From assembly GCA_035544015.1 (NCBI GenBank), contig DATKIP010000064.1, forward strand, positions 2,131-66,130: a DNA stretch of 64,000 bases, in the 5' to 3' direction. Made by a program: the position numbers and the translations under genes. Under the pieces are notes generated by a model. The model did not search any database and was not told where the DNA came from. It was given only the letters and a program-made list of their open reading frames with translations. The DNA is from Candidatus Saccharimonadia bacterium. GTDB taxonomy: Bacteria > Patescibacteriota > Saccharimonadia > UBA4664. Of this stretch, positions 25,336-47,560 are shown piece after piece (positions within the stretch are counted from its first letter, which is position 1; each line of letters opens with the position of its first letter).

Positions 25336-25803
25336 TCAATCATTAACATTTTCCTGATCCATCGCCGGCCGCGCCCGATAGAGCCGCAAGTCAACCTGAG
25401 TAATAATCGATAGGGGAGTCGGCAACGCATCCAGTGCAAACCACCCGATCTCGTCGCATTTTTCCGGCTCCATGATGCGGGGCTCCCGGTCCGGCTTCAG
25501 GGTCGCCAAAAACGTCACCGCCACCCAGTGCTGGCCTTCCGCCGGAATCAAGTGATCGACCGCCGGAAAGGTATCCACGATTTCAATCTCCACCCCGTAT
25601 TCTTCCAAAATCTCGCGTCGCGCCGCCTCCTCCAGCGTCTCGCCAAACTCTACACCGCCACCCGGCGTCTCCCAGCATCCGCGCTCATTCTTCACATTTT
25701 GGCTCCGCTTAGCCAAAAAAAGCTCACCATTATGATTGAAAATCATCGCTCCAGCCGCCACGCCGATATAATCAATGCCTGGCTTCGGAGTCATCCTGCT
25801 CAC
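25336..25803 (-). CDS. NUDIX hydrolase
   Basis: Canonical Nudix box GGGVEFGETLEEAARREILEEYGV. Confidence 0.8.
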   Translation of the reverse strand: MSRMTPKPGIDYIGVAAGAMIFNHNGELFLAKRSQNVKNERGCWETPGGGVEFGETLEEAARREILEEYGVEIEIVDTFPAVDHLIPAEGQHWVAVTFLATLKPDREPRIMEPEKCDEIGWFALDALPTPLSIITQVDLRLYRARPAMDQENVND

Positions 25804-27097: not shown

Positions 27098-27211
27098 GCG
27101 TAGAACAATATCATAATCGTATAATGCGTAAAATATATACAAAAACAGAGAAACCGACCAAAAATGTATAGATATTTGACATTTTGTATAGTTTTAGTGC
27201 AAAATCTAAGC

Positions 27212-27943
27212 ATGCCTAAAAACAACAATTTAGTTCCGATAAGTGAGGCCGCAAAGTATTTGGGTGTTACGGTTATGACCTTACGGCGCTGGGATGAGTC
27301 AGGGAAGCTGCCGGCTCTTAAGAGTCCCGGCGGTCACCGATACTATCACCGAGACGCGCTTGAACGTTATAACGCCGAGCTTTTTAGATTGGCCCAAATA
27401 TGGGCAGCAAGTGACGTGGCGCCAAATCTCCCGCCGGCAGACTACTCCGATACGCAGGATAGATTTAGGGCCAGGTTAGACCGAATGGCCAATCTTATAA
27501 ACCAAAACCCCGAAACATCCGTAGCGGCATCTCTAGTTACTGCGATGGCAGGAGAAATAGGTAATAATTCATTCGACCATAACTTAGGAAATTGGCCCGA
27601 TATCCCAGGCCTATTTTTCAGTTACGATCTAAATAGGCGCATCGTTGTACTAGCCGACCGAGGGGTGGGAATTAAAGCGACATTATTGAGGGTGCGTCCA
27701 GAAATGAAAGATGATATTGAAGCACTAACGGTTGCTATGACAGAGTTTGTATCTGGCAGAACCCCCGAACAAAGAGGAAATGGCCTGAAGTTTGTGCGGA
27801 CAGTAGCGACACAGAATCCAATAGGAATTGCTTTGCAGTCGGGTGTAGCAATCGCCACAATTGAGAAGGAAGGTCCTAAAGAACTAAGAGTAAGGCTTGC
27901 AGATCACTTCATTCGCGGCACATTAGCTAGAATTGAGTATTAA
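27212..27943 (+). CDS. MerR-type HTH fused to a GHKL (RsbW/SpoIIAB-like) ATPase/kinase domain
   Basis: MerR/excisionase-like HTH ISEAAKYLGVTVMTLRRWDESG. N-box EIGNNSFDH, G1 DRGVGI, G2 GNGLKF. Low-GC, AT-rich upstream region. Confidence 0.6.
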   Translation: MPKNNNLVPISEAAKYLGVTVMTLRRWDESGKLPALKSPGGHRYYHRDALERYNAELFRLAQIWAASDVAPNLPPADYSDTQDRFRARLDRMANLINQNPETSVAASLVTAMAGEIGNNSFDHNLGNWPDIPGLFFSYDLNRRIVVLADRGVGIKATLLRVRPEMKDDIEALTVAMTEFVSGRTPEQRGNGLKFVRTVATQNPIGIALQSGVAIATIEKEGPKELRVRLADHFIRGTLARIEY

Positions 27944-27945
27944 TT

Positions 27946-28212
27946 ATGAGAATCGAACTAAAAAAATTCGGAGATGTTCTTACTTCCCGCCCAGCGGGCA
28001 AAGAGGCCTTTGCGGCAATACTCCCAACATTAAACCCCAACGAAAGCAATGTAGAGATCGACTTTAGTAGCGTTATTTCTCTTGCACCCTCTTGGGCTGA
28101 CGAATTCTTCAGAGCATTAGAGGAACTCTATGGGGATCGAGTTATCTATATGCCAAGTGATAATCCGTCTGTAAAAGCTACGCTGGCTATTATTCGTGAT
28201 CAAGCAAAATAG
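27946..28212 (+). CDS. STAS-like domain protein (DUF4325 family), partner of the upstream GHKL gene
   Basis: 88 aa with an EIDFSSV motif (conserved DF of DUF4325); 2-bp spacing from the upstream gene. Confidence 0.55.
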   Translation: MRIELKKFGDVLTSRPAGKEAFAAILPTLNPNESNVEIDFSSVISLAPSWADEFFRALEELYGDRVIYMPSDNPSVKATLAIIRDQAK

Positions 28213-28772: not shown

Positions 28773-29675
28773 CTAGAAATCCGCAATCACGAGCTTTTTC
28801 ATTTCCATCATATGAGCAAAGGCTTTCGGTCGCCGCATGAGCTCGTCCACATTCGCCGGCGCTACCTGCCAGCTCACCCCAAACTGGTCTTTGCACCAGC
28901 CACATTGCTCCGCCTCCGGCACGGTCGAGAGTTTGCCCCAAAAGTAATCAATTTCAGCTTGGTCCTCGCAGGCCACCGATAGCGATACCGCCTCGTTAAA
29001 AGTAAAATCCTGCCCCACGCCCGAGTCCATGGCAGCAAACCATTGGTCTCCCAGCCTGAAATCAGCGAACATGAGCGACCCGGCTTTAGCCGGCCCCGTG
29101 TCTTTGTCGTAGCGCGCCATCGTACCGGTCTGCGAGTCCTTAAAGACCGACGTATACAACTTGATAGCCTCCTCGGCCTGGTTGACGTGGCCCGCGCCAA
29201 ACATCAAAGCGGGGACAATAAACGGACGTGGCTCGCCCTCCGGCTTCGCCAGGCTCAGCTGCCAGGTGAGTCCGTAGCGATCCCTCACCCAGCCGTAACG
29301 CTTGCTGTACGGGTATTCGTCGAGCGCCATGAGGGCTTCGCCGCCCTCGATCAGCTTGCCCCATAGCTCGTCGAGATGCTCAGCCGCCGCATCGTCGCGC
29401 GACGGGTCAAAGTTCACCATAAACGAAATCGACGGGTTGAATTTAAACTCAGACCCGGCATTAATGGCCACAAACTCCTGGCCACTCAGCTCAAATGCTA
29501 TCGTGAGCACCTGTCCGGCTAAGTCTTTCTGAAAGTCGGCCAGCCCGTCTTCCGCGCTCTCGGGGTAGTGGGTGGTGTCGGTGATGCGGCTATCCGGAAC
29601 CGCCGATACATAAAAATCCACTGCCTGCTTGGCATTCCCGCCAAACCATAAATTGGGGGTAATTTTTTGTGCCAT
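28773..29675 (-). CDS. Tandem VOC/glyoxalase-fold protein (PhnB / 3-demethylubiquinone-9 methyltransferase-domain family)
   Basis: Two repeats of the ITPNLWF...FYV and W...DQFGVSWQ pattern; start at MAQKITPNLWF. Confidence 0.65.
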   Translation of the reverse strand: MAQKITPNLWFGGNAKQAVDFYVSAVPDSRITDTTHYPESAEDGLADFQKDLAGQVLTIAFELSGQEFVAINAGSEFKFNPSISFMVNFDPSRDDAAAEHLDELWGKLIEGGEALMALDEYPYSKRYGWVRDRYGLTWQLSLAKPEGEPRPFIVPALMFGAGHVNQAEEAIKLYTSVFKDSQTGTMARYDKDTGPAKAGSLMFADFRLGDQWFAAMDSGVGQDFTFNEAVSLSVACEDQAEIDYFWGKLSTVPEAEQCGWCKDQFGVSWQVAPANVDELMRRPKAFAHMMEMKKLVIADF

Positions 29676-29820
29676 GGCGCGCCCTCTATTAATGCTGTCA
29701 CTACCGTTATACCAGCAATGCCGGGCGCGCGCATGTACGAGCAAGACAAAAACAGGCGCTCATGCCCGAACTGGTGGACTAGCCGCTCTGGGGTCCCCAC
29801 GGCAGTTGTATAATTACGCC

Positions 29821-30206: not shown

Positions 30207-30998
30207 TTAGAAGTGAGCCAGTACGTCCTCAACGCATTCTGCTAATCTGGTTAGAGTTGGGATTAGCGGCTCGGAGTGAACGATGCCATCAACATTAAAA
30301 GCGAGCTGAATATCAAACTGTGTATCATCGTGCGACGTGTCGCCTGAAGGAGTCGAGAAAAGTACGACTCCTTCGGATATCACCACTTTATCGTCTGGGA
30401 CTAACCCAATCTGCACGGATGGGGTATCCTGCGTCCACTCCATGCCTGGCTCATCAGCAAATGCTTTGCGGAAGTGAGCGCCAAGGTCTACCACCACAGC
30501 CTGATGATTGGCCGAGATAGATAGCATGAAATGGTGTTTATCGGTGATATCCAGCTTGTGAATCAACCAAAGCGAGTTATTCCCGCCCTCGTATGGGGCA
30601 AGGCCAGTAATCGTAGCGATATGCTCGGAAGACATTCCTCGGGTTTTTTGTAAGACGCCGTTAGCGTATGATTCGGCATCCTTAAATATCGGAAACTCGG
30701 TGGCTCGCCCAGGATCGACACCATTGGACAAGATAAGGGCGTAGTTTAAATGATCGAGCGCAGTACGCAAATTATGTATCACATCACCGGCTTGCGTTTG
30801 CAGTTCTGCCGGGATTTCCCGAACCGAAACCACCTGCCATTCTCGTAACCCTGTTTTTTTGTTATCAACAATGGCTACGTCATAGGGTCTGCTACCGTAA
30901 AATAACTGAGTCGTATTAGTCATCTCGCCCAATAGAATTTTTGCCCGCTCAAGCTTATGTCGGGCACTATTCAGGTTTGGCTGTGCGCTTGCTTCCAT
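30207..30998 (-). CDS. Hypothetical protein with HEPN-like Rx4H motif, in a low-GC patch
   Basis: NLRTALDHLNYAL contains R-x4-H in a helical context; no other recognisable domain. Confidence 0.4.
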   Translation of the reverse strand: MEASAQPNLNSARHKLERAKILLGEMTNTTQLFYGSRPYDVAIVDNKKTGLREWQVVSVREIPAELQTQAGDVIHNLRTALDHLNYALILSNGVDPGRATEFPIFKDAESYANGVLQKTRGMSSEHIATITGLAPYEGGNNSLWLIHKLDITDKHHFMLSISANHQAVVVDLGAHFRKAFADEPGMEWTQDTPSVQIGLVPDDKVVISEGVVLFSTPSGDTSHDDTQFDIQLAFNVDGIVHSEPLIPTLTRLAECVEDVLAHF

Positions 30999-31062: not shown

Positions 31063-31092
31063 ATCAAAAAGAGGCCCACAAAGGCCTCTTTT
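31063..31092. terminator. Bidirectional intrinsic terminator AAAAAGAGGCC-cacaa-aGGCCTCTTTTG
   Basis: GC stem with A and T tracts on both sides; seen in sequence. Confidence 0.55.
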
Positions 31093-31095
31093 GTC

Positions 31096-31114
31096 ATATA
31101 ATTCCTGGCTCCGA
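31096..31114. repeat. Direct repeat (attR-like): CA[T]ATAATTCCTGGCTCCG, duplicating the 3' end of tRNA-Asn
   Basis: A 16-bp perfect match (19 bp with 1 mismatch) to 32343-32361, which spans the 3' acceptor/CCA end of tRNA-Asn. Confidence 0.6.
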
Positions 31115-31149
31115 GTCGTATCGGAAGTCAGAACTGCTTTGAGAAGCGA

Positions 31150-31295
31150 AACCTAACAAAGAACCCAACATAGGGCACTAGGATGCTGACATAGAGAAAT
31201 AGCTTATGCCTAACAAAGAACCTAACATACAACTAACATAGAGTTGACATAGAACCTAACATAGAGTAAAATAGAACCTAACATAGAATTAGAGG
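31150..31295. repeat. Iteron-like array of direct repeats (core AACATAGA / GAACCTAACATAGA, at least 7 copies)
   Basis: Examples: CCTAACAAAGAACC[C/T]AACATA x2; GAACCTAACATAGA x2; ...gacatagag...; ...taacatagag.... Seen directly upstream of the wHTH gene. Confidence 0.55.
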
Positions 31296-31300
31296 AAGAT

Positions 31301-32335
31301 ATGGGCTTAAAAGAACAAATCTTAGAAGTAGCCGAGGCTAAAAAGCACTTTAAGACGGCCGACGTAATGGCCGCCATTAACGATGGCGCCGCTCGTTCGT
31401 ATGTCAGTACAGTAATTAACTCAATGGTATCCGATGGCGCCCTAGTTAGGGAAGGCTCGGGCAGATGGTCTATTTATGCCTTGCCAAAATACGCAGACAC
31501 ACTAGGCAAGAGAATAAAAAAGCGCTTGGCTAACGTCAGCCTTGAAGAATATGAAGTCTTTGACGCTATTAAGAAAGAAAAGCCTTTCTTAAATACCCTC
31601 AGAGAGAATATTCAAAGCGTTCTTGCATATGCTTTCTCAGAAATGCTTAACAATGCCATTGAGCATTCGGGAAGTAAAAACATTGAAGTTGAAATCCAGC
31701 AGCAAAAAGATAACCTCACCTTTGTCGTGAGAGATTTCGGCGTAGGAGTGTTTAGAAATGTTATGGCTAAGCGAGGGCTTGCTTCGGAACTCGAAGCCAT
31801 ACAAGACCTTCTAAAAGGAAAAACTACCACCGCACCTCAAGCCCATTCGGGTGAGGGCATTTTCTTTACTTCGAAAGCCGGCGACCTCTTTGTGCTTGAA
31901 AGCTATGGGCTGAGACTGCGCATTGATAATGTTATTAATGACGTATTTGTAGAGGAAGTTAAGGCTGACGTTCGAGGGACACAAGTTACATTTCAAATCA
32001 GCACAAAATCCAAGCGCCATCTGAGCGAAGTCTTTGCAGGATATCAGGTTGACCCGGAAGAACCTGCCTTCGACCAGACAGAAGTAAAGATTAGACTTTA
32101 CACAATGGGGACAATATATGTCTCAAGGTCTCAGGCTCGAAGAGTCTTAGTAGGACTCGATAAATTCAGAAGAATTATTTTGGACTTTGATAAGGTGCCA
32201 ACGGTCGGACAGGCCTTCTCTGATGAGATATTTCGCGTATTCCAATCCAGACATCCAGAAATCGAAATCGCCCCGGTCAATATGAATGACGCCGTCAAAT
32301 TTATGGTCGGTCGTGTAGATAAACCAACAAAATAA
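31301..32335 (+). CDS. Winged-HTH + GHKL ATPase/kinase + STAS-like (DUF4325) fusion protein
   Basis: N-terminal wHTH (VMAAINDGAARSYVSTVINSMVSDGALVRE). N-box EMLNNAIEHS, G1 DFGVGV, G2 GEGIFF. C-terminal DUF4325-like ILDFDKV. Low GC (~42%). Confidence 0.6.
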   Translation: MGLKEQILEVAEAKKHFKTADVMAAINDGAARSYVSTVINSMVSDGALVREGSGRWSIYALPKYADTLGKRIKKRLANVSLEEYEVFDAIKKEKPFLNTLRENIQSVLAYAFSEMLNNAIEHSGSKNIEVEIQQQKDNLTFVVRDFGVGVFRNVMAKRGLASELEAIQDLLKGKTTTAPQAHSGEGIFFTSKAGDLFVLESYGLRLRIDNVINDVFVEEVKADVRGTQVTFQISTKSKRHLSEVFAGYQVDPEEPAFDQTEVKIRLYTMGTIYVSRSQARRVLVGLDKFRRIILDFDKVPTVGQAFSDEIFRVFQSRHPEIEIAPVNMNDAVKFMVGRVDKPTK

Positions 32336-32351
32336 CGGCTTTGTAAAGCCG
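32328..32351. terminator. Bidirectional terminator hairpin AACGGCTTT-gtaa-AGCCGTT with flanking A/T
   Basis: Lies between the convergent CDS and tRNA-Asn. Confidence 0.5.
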
Positions 32352-32426
32352 TTATTCATCAAATAATTCCTGGCTCCGGAGGTCGGGCTCGAACCGACGA
32401 CCAATTCGTTAACAGCGAACTGCTCT
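32352..32426 (-). tRNA. tRNA-Asn (anticodon GTT) with encoded CCA
   Basis: Manual fold of TCCGGAGTAGCTCAGTGGTAGAGCAGTTCGCTGTTAACGAATTGGTCGTCGGTTCGAGCCCGACCTCCGGAGCCA: 7-bp acceptor stem, D-arm GCTC/GAGC, anticodon loop CTGTTAA, T-arm GTCGG/CCGAC with TTCGAGC loop. Confidence 0.85.
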
Positions 32427-32606
32427 ACCACTGAGCTACTCCGGATCACAATGTGGGCTGGCCCCATCGGGTGATACTACGAGATTATAGCGATGCGACT
32501 CGGCCTGGTCAATCACTGCGCAAAAAAGCGGCCAGAGATTACCTCTAGCCGCCGGGGGTGTGGAGACCGTTCGCTCCCATGCCCCCATCTCGTCTTGAAC
32601 GCGCGG

Positions 32607-46540: not shown

Positions 46541-47560
46541 ATGAAGTTTGTGCGACCCAAGAAGGTTGTATTTTGCAACAACAAAGGCGGAGTGGGCAAA
46601 ACCACTCTAGCATTTCATATTGCCGTTGAATTTTCCAAGAAAGGCTACAAGACTGCACTCATCGACCTCGACCCCCAATGTAACCTGACACTTCAGGCGC
46701 TGAGCCACACATTTTACGAAGATAATCTGTTTACCGAGAATCAGAGAACGGTTTATGACGTGCTCAAGCCAAAAATAGACGGTAGCGGCGATATAGACGC
46801 CTCTATTAATCTCACCCATGTGCGGGAGAATCTCTACATTTTACCCGGCGATATCCAACTTTCGCTTTTCGAGAATATACTGATTGCCAGCTATAATGAA
46901 GCCGCCGCAGGCAACCCGCGAGGGTACTCGGACACGAGCGCCATTGATCGCTACCTAAACGAAGTCGGCGCACGCGAAAAAGTCGATATCTTCATTATCG
47001 ATACCTCCCCGAGCTTAGGGGTTCTAAACCGAGTAATTTTCCTGGGGGCGGAATACTTCGTGGTTCCCGTGACTCCTGATAGCTACAGCGTCCAAGGTAT
47101 AAAAAACCTCGGCAGTGTTTTTGAGATATGGAAAAAGCAATGGAACAATACCGCCAAAGCAGCGGTAGTCGCAGGAAGTACGCCCAGCAATCAGGTCCTC
47201 AAGGGTGACGCCCTCTTTATCGGCTATATCTTGAACTCCTTCAATACATACGACAAGAAGATTGTTAAACGACAGCGGGATTGGACAGAAAACATCCCCG
47301 TAGAGGTCAAACAATATCTATCCGAAAAGCACGGCAGAAATGGGCTTGTAGAAAGGAGCTGGAGTACGCCACTTGGCTCGCTGCAAGATTATGGGCAGTT
47401 GCCTGCAATCTCTATGGAAAACCATTTGGCGATTCAGGAATTTGACCGTGCTAAGGTCCCCGAGCTCAATCTTAAGGGCACCAAGGAGCTACAAGAAAAA
47501 GCCGTCATCGAGATCGACGCCGTGAGTGATAGAATAATCAAGGTACTCGAAAGCTACTAG
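46541..47560 (+). CDS. ParA/MinD-family P-loop ATPase (orphan), low GC
   Basis: Deviant Walker A NNKGGVGKTT; IDLDPQ; ~47% GC against a ~65% genome background. Confidence 0.8.
   Translation: MKFVRPKKVVFCNNKGGVGKTTLAFHIAVEFSKKGYKTALIDLDPQCNLTLQALSHTFYEDNLFTENQRTVYDVLKPKIDGSGDIDASINLTHVRENLYILPGDIQLSLFENILIASYNEAAAGNPRGYSDTSAIDRYLNEVGAREKVDIFIIDTSPSLGVLNRVIFLGAEYFVVPVTPDSYSVQGIKNLGSVFEIWKKQWNNTAKAAVVAGSTPSNQVLKGDALFIGYILNSFNTYDKKIVKRQRDWTENIPVEVKQYLSEKHGRNGLVERSWSTPLGSLQDYGQLPAISMENHLAIQEFDRAKVPELNLKGTKELQEKAVIEIDAVSDRIIKVLESY

Follow-up and report, generated by a model that had tools for sequence, protein, structure and literature searches.

An integron cassette consists of a promoterless open reading frame (ORF) and an attC site (R''-L''...L'-R'), and it is captured by IntI at attI. 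Cis-mobilizable elements (CIMEs) are defined as elements in which the attachment (att) sites are kept and the recombination genes are absent (ICEberg 2.0, PMC6323972). As regards regulatory proteins, CapK (helix-turn-helix (HTH)-STAS-GHKL) and CapS (STAS-winged HTH (wHTH)) are the products of two genes that precede an immune operon (Chambers et al., EMBO J 2026, PMC13373217). In this CapKS pair the kinase, activated by single-stranded DNA, phosphorylates the STAS repressor, which leads to the release of the latter from its own promoter (PMC13373217). The present analysis concerns a segment of 1265 bp at the 3' end of a tRNA-Asn gene, which carries a single gene for a wHTH-GHKL-STAS protein (hereafter the cargo gene) and lies in a metagenome-assembled genome (MAG) of Candidatus Saccharimonadia bacterium (Patescibacteria; GCA_035544015.1, contig DATKIP010000064.1, positions 2,131 to 66,130). 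This whole stretch of 64 kb is referred to as the window, and coordinates are given within it. Patescibacteria have tiny genomes, and their ways of acquiring genes are very poorly known. The locus offers a case, resolved to the base, in which a gene was gained at a tRNA and no recombinase resides there. The explanation preferred here, with a probability of roughly 0.55, is a horizontally acquired, att-flanked single-gene cassette of a CIME-like kind, inserted at the 3' end of tRNA-Asn by a recombinase acting in trans, with repeated events of this sort giving rise to arrays.

Borders of the cassette at tRNA-Asn

The tRNA-Asn gene (anticodon GTT), which is the integration target, occupies 32371-32445 on the minus strand (ARAGORN; Rfam tRNA 69.9 bits) and is accompanied by a promoter-like TTGACC-17-TATAAT at 32512-32484. 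The 16-mer ATAATTCCTGGCTCCG is present in exactly two copies in the window. The proximal copy (32363-32378) comprises the last eight nucleotides (nt) of tRNA-Asn (CGGAGCCA, with the CCA encoded) and 8 nt of the trailer, and the distal copy (31098-31113), an att-like core, likewise joins 8 nt of tRNA trailer to the eight nucleotides with which the tRNA-Asn sequence ends. A search that tolerates up to two mismatches should yield 0.04 chance matches, and two copies were met in none of 100 shuffles. The repeat can be extended to 20 nt with one mismatch, TCA[T/A]ATAATTCCTGGCTCCG, and a weaker similarity of 34 nt (79%) between the surroundings of the copies spans the terminators on both sides. An earlier sequence-only reading had correctly seen an exact two-copy repeat with one copy at 31098-31113, but it had placed the second at 32346-32361, which is 17 nt too far to the left; hence, the block ends at 32378 and not at 32361. 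The inserted segment is accordingly 31098-32362 or, equivalently, 31114-32378. Neither the core nor the 3' end of the tRNA occurs again in the window, in line with what that reading required of the repeat; ungapped scans for more copies of tRNA 3' ends overlooked the gapped fragments. A weak third repeat, AATGCCTGGCTTC at 25774, was considered as an outer island border and rejected, as it is at chance level and lies where a coding ORF begins (25336-25803, minus strand).

In tRNA orientation, a hairpin with a U-run lies 13 nt beyond each copy of the repeat. The distal hairpin is rich in GC (31066-31093, minus strand; 10-bp inverted repeat AAAAGAGGCC/GGCCTCTTTT, -21.7 kcal/mol, z -3.0) and is probably the native terminator of tRNA-Asn, shifted 1265 bp from its tRNA by the insertion. 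The other is an AT-rich 12-bp hairpin (AATAACGGCTTT/AAAGCCGTTATT, ~32330-32357; -20.2 kcal/mol, z -4.5) between the convergent cargo gene and tRNA-Asn, called as a minus-strand terminator and conserved in a related locus of another genome, L001. It is an element-borne terminator that now serves the tRNA, and it probably terminates the cargo gene as well. Apart from these two hairpins the borders have no site of inverted repeats, and terminal inverted repeats are lacking in the cassette.

The composition of the cassette is foreign. The cargo gene has a GC content of 0.44 against ~0.61 in its flanks and the rest of the window, which is 17 points lower, and in nearly all of 86 loci of its homologs the gene is likewise lower in GC than its flanks. 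The jump is sharp only on the tRNA side; leftward, the GC content stays at ~0.49 through an orphan gene of 263 amino acids (aa). The cargo gene is the sole long ORF between the repeats, so that the claim of an element without an integrase stands, and neither in the cassette nor among its neighbours did Pfam, NCBIfam, PHROGs or PADLOC yield a recombinase. The same was true of 20 ORFs of the window scanned against families, ten of them being further unassigned ORFs; the remaining translations of the window, read by eye only, have a housekeeping or membrane/surface look and include no evident recombinase.

The most direct evidence for a discrete unit comes from L001. In blastn, positions 31100-32377 of the window correspond to 1397-2675 of L001 with 91% nucleotide identity, from repeat copy to repeat copy, while the identity in the 60 nt outside each border falls to 0.35 and 0.30. 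The borders of this block of homology coincide with the two copies of the repeat, as expected if they are attL and attR, which is how they had been interpreted from the sequence. Hence the unit has been transferred between genomes. Within it, the 201-nt leader is 90% identical and has no indel, and the core together with 6 further nt is fully conserved. Of 345 third codon positions, 71 differ, and the codon differences amount to 72 synonymous and 14 nonsynonymous ones, which implies that the cargo gene is under purifying selection. The cargo protein is 100% identical to a protein of a 'Candidatus Saccharimonadia' MAG (72.8-kb contig), and its closest relatives (96-75% aa identity) are found in differing gene neighbourhoods. 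The left flank of L001 ends in a terminator hairpin followed by AAAATTCCTGGCTCCG, and L005 (82% nucleotide identity) has ATAATTCATGGCTCCG at the matching place with a similar terminator tail before it. Since the left flanks of L001, L005 and the window are alike, all three cassettes seem to stand behind the displaced end of a tRNA-Asn transcription unit.

At its left end the cassette carries an arm of ~48 nt (TGGCTCCGAGTCGT...CAGAACTGCTTTGAGAAGCGAAACC, 31105-31152, minus strand), which is conserved in L001, L005 and L002 in unrelated contexts and whose first 22 nt are identical in L001. This arm is probably a decayed fragment of tRNA-Asn or an attP arm. Beyond 15 nt its similarity to the tRNA is not significant (z 0.5, by pairwise local alignment with shuffles, used in place of a MAFFT alignment of the end motifs with tRNAs, which was uninformative). 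Taken alone the arm is too decayed to call; its position and the situation in relatives suggest that it is tRNA-like.

The comparison with an empty tRNA-Asn site, which the sequence-only reading had proposed, agrees with an insertion, although the sequences compared are not from the same species. Seven metagenome contigs carry the identical 75-nt tRNA-Asn, and none of the seven has a cargo homolog beside it. The trailer ATAATTCC follows the tRNA in four of the eight sequences (L092, L096, L097 and the window). Two of these, L097 and L096, pass directly from tRNA to trailer to terminator, as in the reconstructed empty site; the trailer and terminator of L097 match the distal ones of the window with 83% identity in blastn over 31063-31113, and L096 has a homolog of the window gene at 28773-29744 (~73% nucleotide identity) ~500 nt from its tRNA. 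Furthermore, L092, L094 and L098 agree in the tRNA and in at least 80 nt of the adjoining 5' flank but have three unrelated 3' flanks, which diverge exactly at the CCA end. This implies that the 3' end of tRNA-Asn is a hot spot of recombination in the lineage.

Other genes were seen next to tRNA-Asn in these contigs. An ORF of the excisionase-type HTH_17 family adjoins the identical tRNA in L098, and a short conserved ORF family (66-150 aa) reads into the tRNA in L094 and L098. The latter was tried as the C-terminus of a large serine recombinase and given up, as Pfam, tblastn against phages and plasmids, and a homolog search returned short hypothetical proteins only; near one homolog only an IS3-type transposase was seen. 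In L097, a gene with AlbA_2 (Schlafen-type) and HATPase_c_4 domains adjoins the tRNA-Asn terminator, which is another accessory-looking gene of the GHKL family at this hot spot.

Several relatives carry arrays. For example, on contig CAZADQ010000010.1 of a Saccharibacteria MAG (L019, 400-5000) at least five small cassettes, with promoters of their own and ORFs of 70-367 aa, come after tRNA-Asn, and one of them carries a cargo homolog. Repeats that resemble the tRNA 3' end and terminate in TGGCRAGCC stand at four boundaries (~977, 1451, 2705 and 3365), the flanking repeat is 40 nt long at 80% identity, and no recombinase-sized ORF lies within the array. In L008 a distance of ~1 kb separates the homolog from tRNA-Asn; a repeat of 13 nt is found at the CCA end, and more tRNA fragments lie in between. 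Likewise, the cassette of L012 lies between 89-nt repeats (81% identical) that align along the whole of tRNA-Asn (z 4.5-4.7; 0/300 shuffles). The left-end arm of the cassette recurs in the right flank of both L001 and L005, and L005 has a 19-nt fragment of the tRNA-Asn 3' end behind the stop codon. A different tRNA is involved in L035, where a three-gene unit of 3.06 kb without a recombinase is enclosed by repeats of ~105 nt that begin in the last 6 nt of tRNA-Met. The relatives thus suggest a recurrent route of gene gain, in which arrays of mini-cassettes form at tRNA-Asn.

The association with direct repeats extends to the gene family. The longest exact repeat between 600 nt upstream and 500 nt downstream was determined for the 69 loci (within L001-L091) with enough flank. 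Repeats of at least 14 nt were found at 13 of the 69, compared with 3 of 273 cross-locus pairs and none of 105 control genes, which were other genes of 250-450 aa in the same 69 loci. Two of the 13 (L090, L080) are iteron-like and not border-like. The units so bracketed are mostly 1.1-1.3 kb in size, with L088 and L065 at ~1.7 kb. The repeats vary from locus to locus in sequence (tRNA ends, terminators, intergenic DNA) and in length, from 14 to ~105 nt.

The wHTH-GHKL-STAS gene and its surroundings

The cargo gene (31301-32335, plus strand) encodes a protein of 344 aa, with an N-terminal winged helix, a GHKL ATPase/kinase part similar to SpoIIAB/RsbW, and a C-terminal STAS-like DUF4325 domain. 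Pfam matches DUF4325 at 2.3e-12, HATPase_c_2 at 3.6e-7 and a winged helix weakly. An AlphaFold (AF2) model was obtained with a predicted local distance difference test (pLDDT) score of 78.7. The best solved structures found with it by Foldseek are those of SpoIIAB (1til, 1tid, 1l0o), with E 2.6e-5 and a template modelling (TM) score of 0.71 on the target; a sequence search of the PDB gave marginal histidine-kinase matches only. The ATP-binding residues E114, N117/N118, D145, G147, G149, G184 and G186 are invariant in 32 homologs; the domain can thus be assigned to the SpoIIAB/RsbW type of GHKL fold, and its ATP-binding boxes are intact. T301 stands where a helix of the STAS-like domain starts; it is conserved in at least 90% and aligns with a Ser of a separate, free-standing DUF4325 protein (27946-28212). 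At least 5,760 proteins belong to the family, and among the named ones many come from Patescibacteria. Hardly any literature exists on DUF4325, and no experimental work on the cargo family was found. It combines in one chain a DNA-binding domain, an anti-sigma-type kinase and the STAS substrate of such a kinase. In the SpoIIAB-SpoIIAA and RsbW-RsbV modules the STAS partner has a Ser/Thr at the start of helix 2 that can be phosphorylated, and a sigma factor is the target; no sigma factor is linked to the cargo gene.

Upstream of the gene, a sigma-70-type promoter (TTGACA-17-TAAAAT, 31244-31272, plus strand) matches the consensus at 11 of 12 positions. The leader also contains six direct repeats, or iterons, AACCTAACATAG (up to two mismatches) at 31150-31286 on the plus strand with spacings of 12, 57, 11, 23 and 22 nt; six of the seven matches in the window fall in this interval, against 1.4 expected. 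One iteron is located inside the promoter spacer and another just past the -10 box. The block of the promoter is nearly invariant across six loci, and the iterons are conserved upstream of all close homologs. The iterons reported from the sequence are thus present, but their position across the promoter of the cargo gene itself makes operators the best reading of them, predicted to be those of the wHTH protein. By this prediction the wHTH would bind the six iterons and repress its own promoter. The GHKL-STAS pair may act as a partner switch, intramolecular or between subunits, that answers a signal. An interaction of the kinase with the STAS domain, or a phosphorylation for which T301 is the candidate residue, would then alter the binding of DNA.

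A split version of the gene exists in the same window. At 27164-28212, in DNA of low GC (GC content at third codon positions, GC3, 0.42 in a genome of ~62% GC), two genes encode a protein of 259 aa, with a MerR/excisionase-type HTH and a GHKL-like part matching phrog_3364, and a DUF4325/STAS-like protein of 88 aa (27946-28212), whose match to the fused protein spans residues 262-318 of the latter (E 5e-4). It is a second, separate foreign islet, around which no flanking repeat was noticed. A related arrangement is seen in the Francisella prophage KIRK, in which a free-standing DUF4325 ORF (112 aa) lies beside a hypothetical protein of 293 aa between the repressor and the integrase.

To the left of the cassette, the 263-aa orphan gene (30207-30998, minus strand; GC3 0.50) is situated between a native-looking YqeY-like ORF and the displaced tRNA terminator. 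The label 'HEPN-like' that had been given to this neighbour finds no support, the gene having no family match in Pfam, NCBIfam, PHROGs or PADLOC and only 20 homologs in 5.8 billion proteins. Look-ups by exact protein sequence for the 263-aa neighbour, the cargo and a 142-aa ORF returned no record. PADLOC assigned no defence system to the cassette or its neighbours. Further away, a ParA/AAA_31-type ATPase gene (46541-47560, 339 aa, GC3 0.56) lies in an islet of 51% GC at 46-48 kb, which may be another foreign insertion.

Proposed integration in trans and its rivals

According to the proposed course of events, the circular (attP) form of the element would contain a decayed arm resembling tRNA-Asn and then, in the direction of the tRNA, the core CGGAGCCA-GGAATTAT, the trailer and a terminator of its own, with ATAATTCCTGGCTCCGAGTCGT as the attP-like site. 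Crossover would occur within the 16-bp core, so that the host tRNA stays intact; the empty-site junction is reconstructed as GGCCTCTTTTGTCATATAATTCCTGGCTCCGGAGGTCGGGCTCG and the circle junction as AAAGCCGTTATTCATCAAATAATTCCTGGCTCCGAGTCGTATCGGAAG. After insertion the tRNA would read into the AT-rich terminator of the element, and the host copy of the core, together with the GC-rich terminator, would be pushed 1265 bp away. Since the cassette has no recombinase gene, its insertion and any excision would depend on an enzyme supplied in trans, most simply a site-specific integrase from a phage or island with this tRNA-Asn site as its target. Repeated insertions would build tandem arrays of cassettes separated by fragments of the tRNA 3' end, much like accretion at tRNA hot spots, with which the tandem arrays at tRNA-Asn in L019, L008 and L012 agree.

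Phages are a plausible source of such an enzyme. Distant homologs of the cargo protein (32-43% identity) are encoded on 48 IMG/VR viral contigs (L099-L146), and no close homolog was found in GenBank phages. The 150 nearest ORFs on the viral contigs, all within 1.9 kb, include 12 small terminases, six matches to Phage_integrase and three to Resolvase. This pattern is the expected one for accessory genes near the ends of prophage genomes, and the integrases and resolvases near the viral homologs make phages plausible both as vehicle and as source of the integrase. The prophage homologs, together with the island-like distribution of the family, also make a role of the cargo in phage-host conflict plausible.

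Some observations weigh against integration in trans. Neither a cognate integrase or excisionase nor a parent element bearing attP turned up in the window or, recurrently, near homologs: among the 519 neighbour ORFs of more than 80 homolog loci there is no conserved partner gene, and among the 150 nearest ORFs of the homolog loci no recombinase family was matched by two or more members. We infer both the type of recombinase and the mobilization in trans, the latter by analogy. The variety of the repeats from locus to locus means that one integrase would be insufficient, and that either many lineage-specific enzymes or another mechanism would be needed. In a classical attP, homology to the tRNA is unneeded on the 5' side of the core, and yet the tRNA-like arm sits there. 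The right flank of L001 is not a tRNA on its 3.6-kb contig, and the relatives lacking the cassette are not conspecific, which means that they exhibit the architecture of an empty site and not a true empty allele.

The absence of a nearby recombinase and the variation of the repeats would be expected of insertion without any integrase. In such a Campbell-type event, circular or concatemeric DNA containing the cassette with a donor tRNA-Asn, trailer and terminator would be inserted into the homologous region of the recipient by host recombination; the region would thereby be duplicated, and the redundant tRNA copy derived from the donor would then decay. The two ends of the cassette do rebuild, between them, a degenerate locus of tRNA-Asn, trailer and terminator; tRNA genes and their trailers are conserved between species; and the long imperfect repeats of L012 (89 nt at 81%), L019 (40 nt at 80%) and L035 (~105 nt) are what would be expected if the donor had supplied one copy and the recipient the other. 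In the window, however, 16 nt are identical, and beyond them the similarity to the tRNA is at chance level (z 0.5). Sixteen identical nt are short for RecA-dependent recombination. Moreover, the decayed arm is already common to L001 and L005, so that the decay must have preceded the transfers, and the sharp core of 22 nt that is perfectly conserved between the window and L001 resembles a constrained site. Host recombination is therefore regarded as a rather unlikely origin of this cassette.

A further explanation dispenses with the mobility of the cassette. A larger prophage or island with its own integrase may have entered at tRNA-Asn and been deleted in situ down to the cargo gene. Low GC does extend leftward over the 263-aa orphan gene and recurs in the second islet at 27.1-28.2 kb, distant homologs are prophage cargo near integrase or terminase genes, and remnants with partial tRNAs are common at tRNA islands (bioRxiv 10.1101/2020.12.28.424599). 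On the other hand, the 1.28-kb unit lies with both of its ends between unrelated genes in L001, and identical borders would not result from independent deletions; repeat-bounded units of 1.1-1.3 kb also recur throughout the family. The sequence-only reading had offered a decayed island, a satellite mobilized in trans and the last module of a tandem array as its three options. The arrays in L019, L008, L012, L005 and L001 speak for the second and third; a plain decayed island fits less well, owing to the unit with matching ends in another genome, and the deletion of a larger element is judged unlikely.

Very improbable is a self-sufficient minimal element, for which the wHTH-GHKL-STAS protein and the iterons would provide their own replication initiator or recombination factor. 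The flanking repeats track the gene family (13/69 against 0/105), no partner gene is conserved, and direct iterons with 11/22/23-nt phasing lie in an AT-rich leader upstream of the gene for a DNA-binding protein, all of which would suit such an element. Nevertheless, no nuclease, recombinase, transposase or Rep domain was detected by Pfam, NCBIfam, PHROGs, PADLOC or the fold search. There are no terminal inverted repeats and the length of the repeat is not fixed. The iterons sit on the promoter, as operators would, and unrelated small cassettes in L019 have the same boundaries. As for no insertion at all, namely a native gene whose repeat arose by chance or is regulatory, or a chimera of assembly, the metagenomic origin of the contig and the commonness of the gene family in Patescibacteria would allow it, but it is scarcely credible given a repeat far beyond chance, a GC content 17 points under the flanks, a unit at 91% identity in another context, relatives without the gene, and a 16-bp repeat below the usual assembly k-mers with host sequence on both sides within one contig of 72.8 kb.

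Comparison with known systems

Insertion of a single-gene cassette in trans, the preferred explanation, places the locus closest to the CIMEs. Both att-like cores are kept, identical over 16 nt, and genes for integration or transfer are absent, so the cassette would depend on a foreign recombinase; in relatives, cassettes moreover stand in tandem with other att-bounded units, as in CIMEs. The cassette differs in being far smaller (1.27 kb, one gene) and in its host, a MAG of the Patescibacteria (Saccharimonadia). For the cassette no related integrative and conjugative or integrative and mobilizable element, and no integrase, is known, and the gene family is repeat-bounded at many sites. Of a tRNA-integrated island it has the direct repeats, with one on the 3' part of the tRNA, and lacks an integrase of its own. 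It has no transposase domain, terminal inverted repeats or duplication of fixed length that would make it an insertion sequence or transposon. Likewise it is not an iteron replicon, as its protein matches no Rep family and the direct iterons, although present, overlap the promoter.

The tycheposon islands of Prochlorococcus (bioRxiv 10.1101/2020.12.28.424599) share the tRNA-anchored hot spot at which newer integrations shift older units outward, the partial tRNA copies between units, the degenerate remnants that lack an integrase, and a cargo of use in defence or adaptation. However, a tyrosine recombinase and replication modules of their own define the tycheposons, and neither is present here; the units at this locus and in its relatives are single promoter-bearing genes, and the crossover would lie at the extreme 3' end of the tRNA and in the trailer.

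In integron cassettes and clusters of attC sites lacking integron-integrases (CALIN), arrays of tiny, mostly single-gene units likewise lie between recombination sites, and the recombinase is not inside the units. The present cassette differs in having its own promoter, with 11 of 12 consensus positions, and operators; IntI and attI are absent, the anchor is a tRNA, and the borders consist of direct repeats derived from the tRNA 3' end instead of attC hairpins, as judged without a dedicated attC model. It is conceivable, though on the improbable side, that Saccharimonadia and other Patescibacteria have a tRNA-anchored platform of gene capture, with arrays of tiny promoter-bearing, recombinase-less single-gene cassettes that are each bounded by a copy of the tRNA 3' end or trailer and moved in trans or by short-homology recombination. 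Such a platform would be integron-like in function and mechanistically distinct, and the wHTH-GHKL-STAS gene may be among its most successful cassettes.

The cargo protein shares its parts, namely the HTH, the anti-sigma-type GHKL kinase and STAS, with CapK/CapS, VapKSC, SpoIIAB-SpoIIAA and RsbW-RsbV. The likeness to CapK/CapS is one of domain make-up. In contrast to that pair, the cargo has its domains on a single chain, arranged as wHTH-GHKL-STAS (DUF4325); no immune operon adjoins it, no neighbour is conserved across the more than 80 loci, and the predicted operators are direct repeats and not palindromes. With all parts in one chain, a different order and no neighbouring operon, an autoregulated single-chain partner switch appears to be the best interpretation. 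CapK/CapS demonstrates that such parts can sense DNA damage and turn on immune genes (PMC13373217). If the cargo is a stand-alone sensor-regulator or a defence gene, its compact and self-regulated form should be easy to test in a heterologous host.

Relative to all these systems, what is new is the extreme reduction, to one promoter-bearing gene in 1.27 kb, and the host group. In addition, there are indications that one very large uncharacterised family typically travels in repeat-bounded form, and that arrays of such mini-cassettes gather at tRNA-Asn.

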